The notes beneath the pieces are model-generated. The model had not been told where the DNA came from. It was given only the letters and a program-made list of their open reading frames with translations, and searched no databases. 64,000 nucleotides of DNA from Promethearchaeota archaeon (GTDB taxonomy: Archaea > Asgardarchaeota > Lokiarchaeia > Sigyniarchaeales > SOKP01): the NCBI GenBank assembly GCA_048938025.1, contig JBHLMP010000010.1, positions 22,728 through 86,727 on the forward strand, read 5' to 3'. Below, piece by piece: positions 56,229 to 61,245 of this stretch. The translations under genes and the position numbers were made by a program. Within the stretch, counting starts at the first letter, position 1, and every line of letters begins with the position of its first letter.

Positions 56229-59063
56229 TTATTTCCGTATCTTCAATCCTCTTTTCCTTCTAAGATTCCACTTTCTTACTTCATCCATAACAGATACACT
56301 AAAAGCTCCAAGGAGTACTGCAATCCAATAATAGGGATGAAATATTGGAACAACATGAAATGCTAATCCTATTGGTGAAAATAGAATTAATAATTGTAGC
56401 CCTAGAGATAGACCTGTAGCCCAAAATAGATGTTTATTTGGAAAGAGATAAAATGGCTTTATATTAGAAGTACAGGTATAAACAAACAATAATTCACAGA
56501 GAACTAAATTCGTAAACACAATAGTTTGTGCTAATGATATTGCATATAAATTCGCATCAGTACCTGCAGTTACAAAATCAGTTGTTAATTTGGGATCAAT
56601 TCCAGCTTCCGCCCATGCTGGGATTAATACAGACCATAGAAGTACATAGAGTGTTATATCAGTTATCGAAGTATATATTCCAAGGAGTAAAACAGGTCCC
56701 TTTATTTCTGAAATTAAAGTAAATCCTTTTCGCGGTTTATCTTTCATTACATCAGGATCTGTTGGTGTAAGTCCTAAAACCATAGCTGGAATTCCATCTG
56801 TGGCTATATTGAGCCAGAGAATCTGAATCGGAACAACTGGAATTGCGAGATACACATTTGAGATAAGTTTCATAACGATATATGCCGTAAGAATTAAAAA
56901 TATTTCATCAAAATTAGTACTTAGCATGTATCTGAAGAAGCCTTTAGTAGTTTCGAAGATTCCTCTACCTTCCTCTATAGCATTAACGATTGTGGCATAA
57001 TTATCATCGATTAGTATCATTTCAGAAGCCTCTTGAGTAACCTCAGTTCCTTTGAGCCCCATCGCCACACCTACATGCGCTCCCTTTACAGCTGGTGCAT
57101 CATTCACGCCATCTCCAGTCATTGAGACAACTAAATCTAAATCTTTTAATCTCCTTAAAATTCTTAATTTATGTGTAGATGTTACTCTGGCAAATATGTC
57201 TACTGTTTTGACTTTCTCTTGGAGTTCATCGTCATTCATTTCTTCTAAGTCTGCTCCTGTTATTGCTTCATCTGATTCAGTTAAACCAATTTCATGGGCA
57301 ATTGCTATAGCTGTAATTTTATGATCTCCTGTAATCATTATCGTCCGAATTCCTGCCATTCTCGCCTCTTCAATAGCATCTTTAACCTCGTCTCTTGCTG
57401 GGTCAATTATGCCAGTTAAACCAAGATATATATAGTCTTTCTCTATATCTTCTTCCTTGTATCCTTCATTTAGTTCTTTATAAGCAACACCTAATACTCT
57501 CAAGGCATTTTTTGCATATTCTTCATTTTTTTCAAGAATCCTATCTTTTACATTGTCAATAGGTTCTACTTGATGATCATAAACTGCATGACTGGCATTA
57601 TGTAATAAAATATCTGGAGCTCCCTTAATTAATGAATATAATTTATTATCAATTTTTACGACTACTGACATCATTTTCCTGTCGGAACTAAATGGTATCT
57701 CATCAATTTTCTCTGATTTAGTGTCTAACTCCATTTTCATAGCTAAAACTTTCATTGAAATTTCAGTTGGATCTCCTACTACATCAGTATCATTTGTACC
57801 ATCATTTCGAGGTGAAACATTTGAATTATTACAAAACATACATACTTCTAAATATTTTCTTAAATTATCGTCAATTTGAACCTGTTTACCTTTTTCATCG
57901 ATGATTTTACCTTCAAGAGCATAACCTACCCCCTCTACGGCAAATTCTTGCCCCCCTAAAAAAATCTTTACTACTGTCATTTCATTCTTTGTTAAAGTTC
58001 CTGTTTTATCAGAACATATAACATTTACACGTCCAAGTGTCTCTACAGCAGTTAATTTCCTTACTAAGGCATTTCTATCTGCCATTTTTCTCATTCCAAT
58101 ACTCATAACTACTGTAATTACAACAATAAGTCCTTCTGGAACTGCTGAAACTGCTAGACTTATTGATATTTCAAACGCTTGAATAAGCTGCTCCACATCA
58201 AATTCTGTAATTAATAAGATAAAAAATTCAACAAGAAATACAGCACCACAAATTATCAATATGATCATTCCTAAAAGCTTTCCAAACCTATTTACCTCTT
58301 TTTGAAAGGGTGAAAGTTCTATCTCTTCTTCCTGTAGACTTTCAGCAATTTTTCCTATTTCAGTAGTCATCCCTGTGCCAATCACAATTCCTTCTCCATT
58401 TCCTCTAGTAATTATTGTATTCATATATCCAAGATTAGTTCTATCGGCTAAGATCATTTTTTCTTCGACAGGTTTTATATGCTTCTTAACTGGTTTGGAT
58501 TCTCCTGTTAGAATCGCCTCATCAACATAAAGCGAAAACTCTTTATAAATTCTTAGATCTGCTGGAAATTTATCTCCTTCTTCAAATAACGCAATATCTC
58601 CAGGAACAACATCTTCAACACCAATTTCTAAAACTTTTCCTTCTCTCCTAATTTTAGCAAAGTGAGGTGCTAATTTCTTTAAGCTTTCAAGAGCTCGTTC
58701 CGCTTGATATTCTTGATAAAATCCTAAAATTGCATTAACAATTAATATTGCTGCGATAACTATTGCATCAGTATATTCCGTAGACCACGGTTCAGCTCCA
58801 GTTTTAGACGCTTCCCATACCCCAATGATAATAGAAATAACAATAGCAAACATTAGAAGATATATTAGAAAATCTTTAAATTGTCCTATAAATATCTGCA
58901 AAGCGGTTTTTCCTTTTTCTTTTATTAATTCATTTTTACCATATACATCAACCCTTTTTTGAGCTTCTGATTCAGTTAAACCATTTTCTATCGAAGTATT
59001 CAGTAGTTTTTCTACATTTTCAAATGACACTGAATGTGCATGAATATCTTTTATATCAATCAT
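56229..59063 (-). CDS. P-type ATPase, type IIA (Ca2+-transporting-like)
   Basis: 'TGES', 'VPEGL', 'DKTGTLT', 'KGAPD', 'MITGD', 'TGDGVNDAPA', 'QILWLNIATDG'. Confidence 0.93.
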   Translation of the reverse strand: MIDIKDIHAHSVSFENVEKLLNTSIENGLTESEAQKRVDVYGKNELIKEKGKTALQIFIGQFKDFLIYLLMFAIVISIIIGVWEASKTGAEPWSTEYTDAIVIAAILIVNAILGFYQEYQAERALESLKKLAPHFAKIRREGKVLEIGVEDVVPGDIALFEEGDKFPADLRIYKEFSLYVDEAILTGESKPVKKHIKPVEEKMILADRTNLGYMNTIITRGNGEGIVIGTGMTTEIGKIAESLQEEEIELSPFQKEVNRFGKLLGMIILIICGAVFLVEFFILLITEFDVEQLIQAFEISISLAVSAVPEGLIVVITVVMSIGMRKMADRNALVRKLTAVETLGRVNVICSDKTGTLTKNEMTVVKIFLGGQEFAVEGVGYALEGKIIDEKGKQVQIDDNLRKYLEVCMFCNNSNVSPRNDGTNDTDVVGDPTEISMKVLAMKMELDTKSEKIDEIPFSSDRKMMSVVVKIDNKLYSLIKGAPDILLHNASHAVYDHQVEPIDNVKDRILEKNEEYAKNALRVLGVAYKELNEGYKEEDIEKDYIYLGLTGIIDPARDEVKDAIEEARMAGIRTIMITGDHKITAIAIAHEIGLTESDEAITGADLEEMNDDELQEKVKTVDIFARVTSTHKLRILRRLKDLDLVVSMTGDGVNDAPAVKGAHVGVAMGLKGTEVTQEASEMILIDDNYATIVNAIEEGRGIFETTKGFFRYMLSTNFDEIFLILTAYIVMKLISNVYLAIPVVPIQILWLNIATDGIPAMVLGLTPTDPDVMKDKPRKGFTLISEIKGPVLLLGIYTSITDITLYVLLWSVLIPAWAEAGIDPKLTTDFVTAGTDANLYAISLAQTIVFTNLVLCELLFVYTCTSNIKPFYLFPNKHLFWATGLSLGLQLLILFSPIGLAFHVVPIFHPYYWIAVLLGAFSVSVMDEVRKWNLRRKRGLKIRK

Positions 59064-59200
59064 ATTAGCTTCAATTCTTTTTTAGATTTTAATAAAAAAT
59101 TATATTAATAAGTTATAATCTTAATAACTGAATTATTAAATTTAAATTCATTTATACTCATTAGTAAATTAGAATCATAAAAAAATAAATTTGGTGATTT

Positions 59201-59569
59201 CTGTTTAAGATTATTTTTTCAAACTCAGCATTGGATTATATTTATGAACAACAAAAAAAATATCACTATAACAGTGATTTAGAAAAGCTTGTTGTAGCAA
59301 TCTTTTTCTATTCATCCTCAACTTGAACCCTAGCTTTTTGTGGTAATGTTCTTGAATTAATTGAAAAACAAAAAGTTATTGAAGATGGAGATTTCATTGA
59401 ATGGACCGATTTGGATAAAAATCTTAATATTAATGTTTTCATTGAACAAAATTTGCTCCCAGAATTAGAATTAAAAGATCAAATACTCATTGATGTTGCA
59501 ATTGGGGAAATAAAAGGAGTAAAAATAGGTATGTTGTTTATAAAAAAATCTCAGGATGTTTATTGTTAA
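59201..59569 (+). CDS. Candidate selenoprotein, 122 aa, in-frame TGA at 59324-59326 (codon 42); weak resemblance to HesB/IscA-like small proteins; absent from ORF track
   Basis: Single frame (M)FKIIFSNSALDYIYEQQKKYHYNSDLEKLVVAIFFYSSST-U-TLAFCGNVLELIEKQKVIEDGDFIEWTDLDKNLNINVFIEQNLLPELELKDQILIDVAIGEIKGVKIGMLFIKKSQDVYC*. GGTGA SD at 59193. SECIS-like hairpin right after the stop. Start (CTG 59201, or TTG 59231) uncertain. Confidence 0.78.
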
Positions 59570-59615
59570 ATAAATGAACTAATCTTAAAAATTCTAGAAG
59601 ATTGGTGATTAACGG
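59563..59615 (+). promoter_or_regulatory. Eukaryote-type SECIS-like element
   Basis: AUGAA (59574-59578); stem CUAAUCUU (59579-86) pairing with AAGAUUGG (59598-605); A-rich apical loop starting AAAAA; 3' core UGAU (59606-09); lower helix UUGUUA (59563-68) with UAACGG (59610-15). Confidence 0.78.
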
Positions 59616-59760
59616 TTGTGTCCGTTTATTTTCAAAATAATGCAAATTCTTAAAAAAATAAAATATAAATTTTATAAGCATGATTATTGTTATAAGATAA
59701 AATTTAATTTTATCAATAAAATTTAGTTTTTTAAATAAACATACAACTATATTGATTATT

Positions 59761-60342
59761 ATGAGACCATCACGAGTTTTTAGATGGATTGTAAGAATAT
59801 TTATAATTGTTTTAACAGTATCAGTTACTGCTGTTTCCTTTTTAGGTGGAATGTCTGCTATTTTGATACTTTCTAATCCAGATAATATTGAAGTTGATAC
59901 TGATAATGCGGATTTTAATATAGATTATAATGAGATATCTGGAGTGGTAAATAATATCAATTTCACTTTACCATTTAATATAACCAACGTAGGCTTTTTT
60001 GATTTAGAAGATCTTAAATTAGGACTTAAAATAGATCTTGAATATGCTCATATTAATTTAACTGGAACAGGTGAAAATATATCTCAAACAGTAAAAATAT
60101 TTGATAAGCTATCTTCTTATCCTACAATTAAAAAAGGTAAGACATTATATGGTAATTTCACAGGAATATATTCTGATTTTGCTCCTTATTTAGGAAATCT
60201 ACCAGATATTGCTGATATAGATCTTACAAGAGTCCCCATATTTAATTTCTATGCTAATTTTACAATCAGTCTAACATATTCTTTGGGACTACATTCTATT
60301 ACTCTTGGAATAAATAACATCACATTACCGGAATATCCTTAG
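59761..60342 (+). CDS. Hypothetical protein, N-terminal TM plus beta-rich (LEA-2-like?) domain
   Basis: One TM, then 'LPFNITNVGFFDLEDL' beta pattern with several NxS/T sequons; ATG at 59761. Confidence 0.7.
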   Translation: MRPSRVFRWIVRIFIIVLTVSVTAVSFLGGMSAILILSNPDNIEVDTDNADFNIDYNEISGVVNNINFTLPFNITNVGFFDLEDLKLGLKIDLEYAHINLTGTGENISQTVKIFDKLSSYPTIKKGKTLYGNFTGIYSDFAPYLGNLPDIADIDLTRVPIFNFYANFTISLTYSLGLHSITLGINNITLPEYP

Positions 60343-60354
60343 GAGGTTCAAGAA

Positions 60355-60843
60355 ATGGGTCCAACTATAAACATAGTAAAAGGTACTATTTTTGCTGTTA
60401 TATATGTATGTTTTACAATCATAATTCCAGTATTAACCTTTTCTTTAATAAGAGAATATGTTGTTGAGGGTTTACCATTAGATTTTACACAGGAAGATTT
60501 AAACAATATTATCTTTTGGGTTACTGCATTAGGATTAATCATAAGTGGATGTGCTTTCTTCACACATTCTTCACCTAAACAATCAATAAGAAGAGGTACT
60601 TTTGCTTTGATCCAAGTATTAGTTAATTGTCTATACTTATGGAGCTATAAATTCTCAGGAGCAACTGAAATAATATTTAATTTAGATATGGGTGATAATT
60701 CAGGATTTCTGAGCTTGAATTTACAACAGATGGTTTTAGTTTATTTGGGAATTTATTTTTTAACTATAGTTCTAAAAATATATGATGTTATTGATTTTAC
60801 AATTAATAGAGAAAAAATTAGAAGCGATAGAATGAAAGAATAA
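60355..60843 (+). CDS. Hypothetical 4-TM membrane protein
   Basis: AGGAGG SD, four hydrophobic segments, 12 bp after the previous gene. Confidence 0.75.
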   Translation: MGPTINIVKGTIFAVIYVCFTIIIPVLTFSLIREYVVEGLPLDFTQEDLNNIIFWVTALGLIISGCAFFTHSSPKQSIRRGTFALIQVLVNCLYLWSYKFSGATEIIFNLDMGDNSGFLSLNLQQMVLVYLGIYFLTIVLKIYDVIDFTINREKIRSDRMKE

Positions 60844-60858
60844 AGAGGTAGAGAAAAA

Positions 60859-61245
60859 ATGGTTTTCCAAACTATGGGATTTTTAGAAGTATTAGCTGAT
60901 ATTTTTGGAGCAATTTTAATTTTCTTAAAACCAATAGTAGTACCTATTGGTGAATGGATGGTTGATTGGATCACTGCATCCATGGAATTTTTGAAACAAA
61001 ACTTTAGCAGTGAACTAACTATTTATATTGTAATTTTTATCATTCTAATTGTATCTGGTGTTATTATAAATATCATTTGGCCTGGTGATCGCCCGGGAAC
61101 AATATTTTCCAAAGGTTTAGATAAAATAGAAGAAAAATTCGAAGAAAAATTGGCTATTCCAGATGGAATAAGAAGATGTAAGGATTGTGGTAATCCAATT
61201 GGAGATTCTAGGGTTTGTCCTTTATGTGGGGCTGAAAATGATTAA
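60859..61245 (+). CDS. Hypothetical membrane protein with C-terminal Zn ribbon
   Basis: GAGG SD, TM helix, 'CKDC...CPLCG'. Confidence 0.75.
   Translation: MVFQTMGFLEVLADIFGAILIFLKPIVVPIGEWMVDWITASMEFLKQNFSSELTIYIVIFIILIVSGVIINIIWPGDRPGTIFSKGLDKIEEKFEEKLAIPDGIRRCKDCGNPIGDSRVCPLCGAEND

Follow-up and report, generated by a model that had tools for sequence, protein, structure and literature searches.

In a stretch of DNA of 64,000 nucleotides (nt) from a Promethearchaeota archaeon of the class Lokiarchaeia (assembly GCA_048938025.1, contig JBHLMP010000010.1, positions 22,728 to 86,727 of the forward strand; hereafter the window, from whose first letter positions are counted), we identified a selenocysteine insertion sequence (SECIS) of the Loki type at about 59574-59626. 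This element very probably recodes an in-frame UGA (59324-59326) as selenocysteine (Sec) in a small gene of 122 codons (59201-59569). The computed evidence consists of the match to a published signal, the match to the SECIS of other genes in the same genome, conservation and covariation in orthologues, the conserved TGA, the Sec machinery of the genome and the predicted fold of the protein; from these we infer the actual insertion of Sec, an RNA-binding factor and the role of the protein. The starting point was an original prediction, made from the letters alone, of a compact eukaryote-type SECIS overlapping a stop codon. Published work is cited below from those parts of the papers that were available to us. 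The element and its immediate surroundings comprise the following features.

59567..59569, plus strand: TAA stop codon of the gene, 4 nt before AUGA (by reading)
59574..59577, plus strand: AUGA, the 5' side of the SECIS core, invariant in 39 of 39 orthologous sequences and in 7 known SECIS of the genome
59578-59586 with 59598-59606, plus strand: upper helix P2, 9 base pairs (bp) with no mismatch (from the fold and from pairing in orthologues)
59587-59597, plus strand: apical loop of 11 nt that begins with five A and ends with AG, reading AAAAAUUCUAG
59607..59608, plus strand: GA, the 3' side of the SECIS core (by reading), present in all 39 orthologous sequences
59611-59615 with 59622-59626, plus strand: third arm P3, a 5-bp hairpin with a 6-nt loop, in both the minimum free energy (MFE) and the centroid structure
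59561..59642, plus strand: the whole element as folded in the window copy (MFE structure only)

A direct reading of 59563-59615 agrees letter for letter with the original prediction, and the AUGA/GA core and the unpaired apical adenosines that it described are found at the positions listed. The upper helix is present too, but it has 9 bp and not the 8 bp first counted, because A59578 pairs with U59606. The distance from the UGA to the first A of AUGA (59574) is 250 nt, as had been estimated. The short upper helix had been regarded as an oddity; it is real, but in the SECIS published for Lokiarchaeota (lokiSECIS) a 9-bp stem is a defining trait. These elements have AUGA, the 9-bp stem, an 11-nt loop and GA after the stem (AA in VhuU), and lie near the end of the coding sequence (CDS); the first five bases of the loop are mostly A, and its last base is G, mostly preceded by A (PMC4989117). 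The same structure has been named the Asgard type I eSECIS-like structure by Huang et al. 2024, with a looser model (stem of 7-15 bp, loop of 8-20 nt; PMC11227280). In checks of both sequence and fold, the window element satisfies every published lokiSECIS feature as well as the type I model, which upholds the idea of a eukaryote-like SECIS acting from the 3' region on a distant UGA. RNAfold applied to 59545-59635 yields two hairpins, P2 followed by P3, in both the MFE and the centroid structure. The GAA/A asymmetric bulge between G+C-rich stems that is found in euryarchaeal SECIS was not seen on reading 59560-59650, no descriptor for it having been run. On sequence grounds, we assign the element to a known class of signals, as a genuine Loki-type (Asgard type I, eukaryote-like) SECIS.

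The same assignment is obtained by comparison with the rest of the genome, in which the known selenoprotein genes are followed by an element of fixed shape (AUGA, 9 stem positions, 11-nt loop, GA or AA). A covariance model, R1, was built from the SECIS of four frhD genes, hdrA, vhuU and prxL of this genome, with the candidate left out. This model recovers the window element at 59568-59610 with 34.4 bits (E 3.4e-5 for 67,252 bases searched), the next-best match in the window reaching 17.5 bits; the training members score 40.8-56.6 bits, so that the window element is the weakest of the set. Similarity to the SECIS behind known selenoprotein genes of this genome, suggested at the outset as a check, is thereby demonstrated. 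For the genome-wide comparison we rely on a strict descriptor of the published features, because only 150 of the 8527 first-look candidates were scored when R1 was run on the whole genome, and the window element, not being among them, was scored directly. The strict descriptor has 8 matches in the genome, namely 6 behind known selenoprotein genes, the window element, and one on contig C77 that is described below; in six simulated first-order Markov genomes of the same size, it gave 0, 0, 0, 0, 1 and 0 matches.

The gene that the element would serve is laid out as follows.

59201..59569, plus strand: CDS of a predicted HesB/IscA-fold selenoprotein, 122 codons and TAA, first codon CTG (from conservation and the structural model; start uncertain)
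59324..59326, plus strand: in-frame UGA, putative Sec codon (residue 42), the TGA column being kept in 45 of 46 loci
59339..59341, plus strand: Cys codon five residues after Sec (U-x4-C), C47 being nearly invariant in the alignment of the family (A4)

If TGA is taken as Sec, an open frame spans 59198-59569. Among 49 related loci read in frame, 46 cover the site and 3 stop short of it; TGA occupies the same column in 45 of the 46, down to 37% identity, and the protein is conserved on both sides of it. The single exception, L070 (26% identity), has a Cys codon in this column. Under translation table 11, the only open reading frame (ORF) at the gene is one of 52 amino acids (59411-59569), and gene callers end at the TGA; moreover, a loose SECIS descriptor has 821 matches in this A+T-rich genome (3.52 Mb, 29.3% G+C), which constitutes no evidence for function. 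These facts would suit a hairpin that does no recoding, such as a terminator, a stability element or a generic k-turn, with the TGA at 59324 a true stop that separates two small ORFs or marks a dead gene. We consider this highly improbable, given the conservation of the protein in one frame across the TGA, the resemblance of the hairpin to the SECIS of known selenoprotein genes, and the fact that the window copy has no start codon between the TGA and 59411. An AlphaFold2 prediction made with 33 sequences also produces a single continuous model across the site, with a mean predicted local distance difference test score (pLDDT) of 88.7 and a predicted template modelling score (pTM) of 0.80.

Further evidence that ties the UGA to the SECIS comes from paralogues. 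In a set with one genome per species, 53 of 161 genomes of the class have the gene, which is confined to one family (52 of 134 genomes there and none of 26 in six other families); of the 70 matches listed, 67 have one in-frame TGA. The three listed matches without TGA are Cys paralogues located between Sec paralogues in tandem clusters (L080-L082), in which an R1 match follows all 5 Sec copies and none of the 3 Cys copies. These clusters are a natural control that links UGA to SECIS, and this association of the SECIS with TGA and not with Cys is again at odds with a hairpin unrelated to recoding. The Sec forms keep the Cys five residues on (U-x4-C) and the Cys-type paralogues lack it; Pfam and NCBIfam returned no family for a Cys paralogue. 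In another locus, L044, the first R1 match is followed some 590 nt downstream by a second (1260-1302, 29.3 bits); this points to a tandem Sec paralogue of the kind seen in L080 and L081.

A database search gave 17 homologues: three are full length with W at the position of the TGA, and the other 14 start two residues downstream of it. Only 59 relatives were obtained from 1.84 billion representatives, and many of these are fragments whose end falls immediately before profile position 42 (the Sec column) or whose start falls immediately after it; the 18 long ones have W (12) or C (6) in this column. The W entries are what favours a reading of UGA as Trp or another standard residue, through a changed code or a leaky stop, and we regard this as extremely improbable. 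These entries fit gene callers using a table in which TGA encodes W, and the DNA of two close loci has TGA; the Cys-type relatives have Cys at the corresponding site, which makes a classic Sec/Cys pair. TGA also behaves as an ordinary stop elsewhere in this genome, closing 190 of the 1446 stop-to-stop frames of at least 300 codons (13%), about as many as TAG.

In addition, the genome has the machinery for Sec as well as the SECIS. SepSecS (484.3 bits; contig C48:21260-22561, minus strand) and SelB (243.7 bits against a cut-off of 242.25; C48:25907-26818, plus strand) were identified, together with a PSTK-like gene that scores under its cut-off (139.4 against 290.5 bits). Next to SepSecS lies a tRNA-Sec-like gene with a UCA anticodon (C48:22637-22753, minus strand), in which the anticodon loop reads CUUCAAA and 31 nt are inserted near the T arm. 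Because of this insertion, it stays under the Rfam cut-off (34.6 against 47 bits) and hidden from ARAGORN, which called no Sec tRNA among three tRNA-Sec candidates; the Rfam alignment was used instead. SepSecS, the tRNA-Sec-like gene and SelB form a cluster at C48:21260-26818 of this genome (G000). Two tandem selD genes (C35:31639-34100) have one in-frame TGA each, and 4 of 11 FlpD/MvhD matches have two. Each selD has a type II (ministem) SECIS of its own, and both of these, by reading, have a side hairpin (P3) after GA and a closing stem (P1), UGAUG/CAUCA. Judging from this gene complement, the genome decodes Sec, and a Sec reading of the UGA in the window gene fits this setting.

The SECIS itself is conserved with the gene. 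We compared 39 distinct 3' regions of orthologues, related sequences in which counts overstate independence. All 39 carry the element 3-7 nt past the stop codon, with 8 or 9 of the 9 P2 pairs, a loop of 11 nt in 38 and of 10 nt in one, and in many a one-base bulge in the 3' arm of P2. Across the 8 aligned pairs of P2, 96.5% of cells pair, and 3 of the 8 pairs are changed on both sides; for P3, 87.5% of cells pair in a MAFFT alignment. P2 and P3 together reach 93.1% in that alignment, a value attained by none of 500 shuffles, and controls with slid partners gave 32-52%. Covariation in orthologues had been proposed as a further check and is borne out by these figures. RNAalifold on the MAFFT alignment recovers the upper helix alone because indels misalign P3 and P1. 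R1 matches the stop region (E ≤ 0.01) in 30 of the 49 related loci; the other 19 comprise 16 with the 1-nt bulged form (by reading), 2 at a contig edge and the one Cys homologue.

What surrounds the core differs from the first drawing. The original prediction placed below the core a lower helix of 59563-59568 with 59610-59615, the 5' arm of which overlaps the last codons and the stop. It can be drawn in the window copy, but its pairing in orthologues is chance-like: in 39 sequences, 63.7% of cells pair compared with 62.3% in shuffles, 21 of 500 shuffles reach the observed value, and two of the six pairs fail to form in 36 and 28 of the 39 sequences, respectively. This helix also competes with the conserved hairpin 59611-59626, that is, P3, which was found in 37 of 39 orthologues, 8 of 9 other SECIS of the genome and 24 of the 27 best R1 matches in related genomes. 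In place of the lower helix, the family has a closing stem, P1, in which the last sense codons (UAY GG) pair with the bases right after P3; 86.5% of its cells pair, a value that none of 500 shuffles reaches, and both sides have changed in 5 of the 6 pairs. At the third, synonymous position of the Tyr codon, the base covaries with its P1 partner (C-G in 21 sequences, U-A in 9). When sequences were folded to the MFE with only AUGA held unpaired, all three arms formed in 29 of the 39 orthologues (mean with shuffled flanks, 7.8), in 7 of the genome's 9 other SECIS (1.2) and in 20 of the 27 best R1 matches from related genomes (4.8).

In the window copy, the P1 register of the family does not pair. 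Its MFE structure offers instead a closing stem of 59561-59567 with 59636-59642, which is not kept in the closest relatives, L022, L025 and L026, so a closing stem in the window's own copy is doubtful. The last codon, 59564-59566, is TGT (Cys), and this lets the final codons of the window copy pair with 59636-59642. The absence of the family P1 from this clade leaves some room for a SECIS that folds in the window copy as first drawn, with two helices and no third arm; the six lower pairs are possible there (two of them G.U), and L022 alters both sides of one lower-helix pair with pairing kept. The same change in L022 fits P3 equally well (A-U to G.U), the lower helix does no better than shuffles, and P3 is present both in the MFE and centroid structures of the window copy and in nearly all of its relatives. 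The two-helix fold is, accordingly, rather unlikely in our judgement, and the sequence comparison indicates that the window element most likely forms the three-armed junction as its relatives do.

Several observations weigh against a working selenoprotein gene with its own SECIS in the window. The function of both is a computational prediction here, as is, in the literature consulted, that of lokiSECIS. The folding energy of the element is unremarkable (z = -1.84, with 8 of 200 shuffles equally stable). An Rfam scan of 58000-61000 at E ≤ 10 found no SECIS family, RF00031 included, its sole match being a chance one to CRISPR-DR17; older models likewise missed the SECIS described in 2016 (PMC4989117). 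Since the element was not among the 150 of 8527 candidates scored genome-wide, its ranking in the genome depends on the descriptor. The family P1 register fails to pair not only in the window copy but in L022, L025 and L026 as well, and a T-rich run at 59625-59632 could terminate the transcript ahead of any closing stem. In one RNA library, two 151-nt contigs lie over 59274-59552 and none from 59560 on, although contigs that stop short of the SECIS say nothing about the end of the transcript. The substitutions relative to two close relatives (8 synonymous to 7 non-synonymous, and 12 to 16) are mildly biased towards synonymous changes and too few to decide. Within the same genus, the gene occurs in only 3 of 53 other genomes. 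Finally, the codon at the aligned start, 2 nt past GGTGAT, is CTG in the window copy, which leaves the start uncertain.

Some of these points could instead indicate a true selenoprotein family of which the window copy is decaying, with CTG in the start column, the closing stem lost, a patchy presence in the genus and a C-terminal Gly changed to Cys (the C-terminal residue is Gly in 16 of 17 database homologues and in nearly all loci). We consider decay unlikely. The frame is intact and the SECIS core, P2 and P3 are perfect; CTG is shared with L022 and L025, which come from other samples, and L026 has TTG, so that this state is maintained and is not a one-off lesion. One of the RNA-library contigs (151 nt, 59274-59424) spans the UGA with 1 mismatch, a weak hint of expression given that DNA is possible in such libraries. 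Orthologues have ATG, TTG, ATT, ATA or GTG in the start column, and some have TCA or GAA; non-canonical initiation seems common in this gene family, judging from the aligned sequences. The next canonical start downstream of the CTG is TTG at 59231. Two further features precede the gene.

59193..59198, plus strand: Shine-Dalgarno-like GGTGAT, its TGA in frame by chance; TGGTGA lies 2-3 nt before the aligned start in most orthologues
59151..59157, plus strand: TATA-box-like TTTATAC, putative promoter; TTATAY lies at the same distance in most orthologous loci, and the function is inferred

We take GGTGAT at 59193-59198 to be complementary to the 3' end of 16S rRNA. The in-frame 'W-U' seen upstream in many loci is this ribosome-binding word alone. 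The upstream neighbour (56229-59063, minus strand) is a P-type cation ATPase (Pfam E1-E2_ATPase, 6e-46). Downstream, 59752-61245 (plus strand) contains three small ORFs, two of them without a Pfam family and the third with only sub-threshold matches to DUF7577 and a double zinc ribbon at its Cys-rich C-terminus. None of these neighbours has an obvious functional link to the selenoprotein gene.

The relationships of the protein were discernible mainly from its predicted structure. A Foldseek search of the PDB with the model gave SufA, IscA and their relatives as the 11 best matches (E from 5e-4, template modelling scores of 0.39-0.66), at 11-16% identity to the window protein. Pfam has no family for the window protein, whether the N-terminally short or later versions were used, and NCBIfam has no match for it, neither TIGR01911 nor NF041239; a profile search of PDB sequences gave only a chance match to a ribosomal protein (E 0.24). 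Among 33 family members, the sole match to PF01521 is that of L070 (19.4 bits, under the cut-off of 26.3), and weak sub-threshold matches were obtained to TIGR01911 in 3 (best E 0.0012) and to NF041239 in 9 (best E 0.0091). The gene product is therefore predicted, on the basis of the model, to be a small IscA/HesB-shaped protein resembling iron-sulfur carriers, in which U-x4-C is probably a selenenylsulfide redox centre or a metal- or chalcogen-handling one.

In the mechanism that we propose, the SECIS would lie in the 3' end of the mRNA of the 122-codon gene, where AUGA and GA would form sheared G.A/A.G pairs at the base of the 9-bp helix with its A-rich 11-nt loop. When a ribosome reaches the UGA at 59324-59326, the folded SECIS would let the Sec-specific elongation factor deliver Sec-tRNA(UCA), and the UGA would then be decoded as selenocysteine and not as a stop. 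The product would carry Sec in the turn of a beta-hairpin, five residues before the conserved Cys. For most members of the family, as for the known selenoprotein genes, the closing stem P1, the SECIS helix P2 and P3 on the strand of the 3' GA would adopt the topology of a k-junction, defined as a kink-turn with an extra helix on the non-bulged strand (PMC10573300; Wang et al. 2014, PMC4005666). We offer tentatively, as somewhat more apt to fail than to hold in all its parts, the fuller proposal that the Loki-type SECIS is a k-junction in which P1 uses the last sense codons and P3 is required, possibly for docking an archaeal SECIS reader, and that the window element also recodes UGA in an uncatalogued IscA-fold family with U-x4-C.

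The suggestion that the element could seed a genome-wide search proved productive, in that two more unassigned elements turned up, on contigs C77 and C66. The first (C77:4318-4352, minus strand; locus L077 167-209, minus strand) is a lokiSECIS with 39 bits in R1 and is the remaining match of the strict descriptor. It lies 8 nt behind a 161-codon ORF (L077 209-694, minus strand) with two adjacent in-frame TGA (..HAD-U-U-ADV..); of 61 genomes sampled in the family, 53 contain relatives of this gene, almost every match has 2 or 3 in-frame TGA, and neither Pfam nor NCBIfam has a family for the protein. The second (C66:23674-23707, plus strand; locus L075 1669-1710) is SECIS-like, scores 36.3 bits in R1, has a 10-nt loop and includes P3 as well as a closing stem. 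A 36-codon ORF located 30 nt upstream of it (L075 1535-1645) would encode a hydrophobic peptide and has TGA two codons before TAA; this ORF may specify a very small membrane selenopeptide or may have arisen by chance.

The selenoprotein families described in Asgard archaea are SelD, FrhA/VhuU, HdrA, FrhD/VhuD, a Prx-like protein, an AhpF-N homologue and a DsbA-like protein (PMC11227280, PMC13188914); the SECIS-based search by Mariotti gave only HdrA, VhuD, VhuU and PrxL (PMC4989117), and Sun et al. list HdrA, Prx and MvhD (PMC9723677). The family found here is absent from the lists of PMC4989117 (supplement aside), PMC11227280, PMC9723677 and PMC13188914 as far as these were consulted; one supplement file of Huang et al. 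(PMC11227280) mentions neither HesB nor IscA, and a full-text literature search found no paper on an IscA/HesB-type selenoprotein in Asgard archaea. Hence the class of SECIS is known, and the selenoprotein family is not in the published Asgard lists consulted. The element provides confirmation, from new DNA, that eukaryote-like SECIS are used by Loki-type archaea, as found in 2016 (PMC4989117), and it exposes a selenoprotein family overlooked by homology-based surveys because its only close relatives are mis-called fragments. Given the two further SECIS obtained with the same descriptor, Asgard selenoproteomes are probably undercounted. With its conserved third arm, the element offers a defined feature that can be mutated to find out what reads the SECIS where SBP2 is lacking; no archaeal SBP2 is known (PMC4989117).

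Compared with known systems, the window element agrees with lokiSECIS in AUGA, the 9-bp stem, the 11-nt loop with five A and an AG end, GA, the location a few nt after the stop codon and the nature of a 3' untranslated region (UTR) signal acting at a distance. What is additional is the gene family it serves, named in the consulted parts of neither PMC4989117 nor PMC11227280, and the side hairpin P3 with its three-armed shape, which goes unmentioned in the text (figures aside) of both papers. With eukaryotic SECIS of type I (RF00031), it has in common the AUGA/GA kink-turn core, the unpaired A of the loop and the 3'-UTR site, whereas its upper helix is shorter and its 3' strand bears an extra hairpin. 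The likeness to the k-junction resides in P3 directly after the 3' GA and in P1 closing behind it, a match by secondary structure and covariation alone in which the 5' loop exceeds the standard bulge of 3 nt; Huang et al., in the part of their text consulted, cite the k-junction paper only for the GA_AA pair (PMC11227280).

At the protein level, IscA has a C-terminal Cys pair. The window protein lacks this pair but has a predicted fold like that of the A-type Fe-S carriers IscA and SufA (PF01521; PDB 2d2a, 1r94, 1x0g); its Sec column corresponds to the Cys of L070 (column C42, invariant in alignment A4) and may match the first ligand Cys of IscA. The HesB-like selenoproteins (TIGR01911) and the CC/Se motif family (NF041239) are, as here, small IscA/HesB-related Sec proteins, the known members of which are from Methanococcales and bacteria and use other SECIS types. 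The motif of TIGR01911 is UxGP (PMC13188914), in contrast to U-T-L-A-F-C (U-x4-C) in the window protein.

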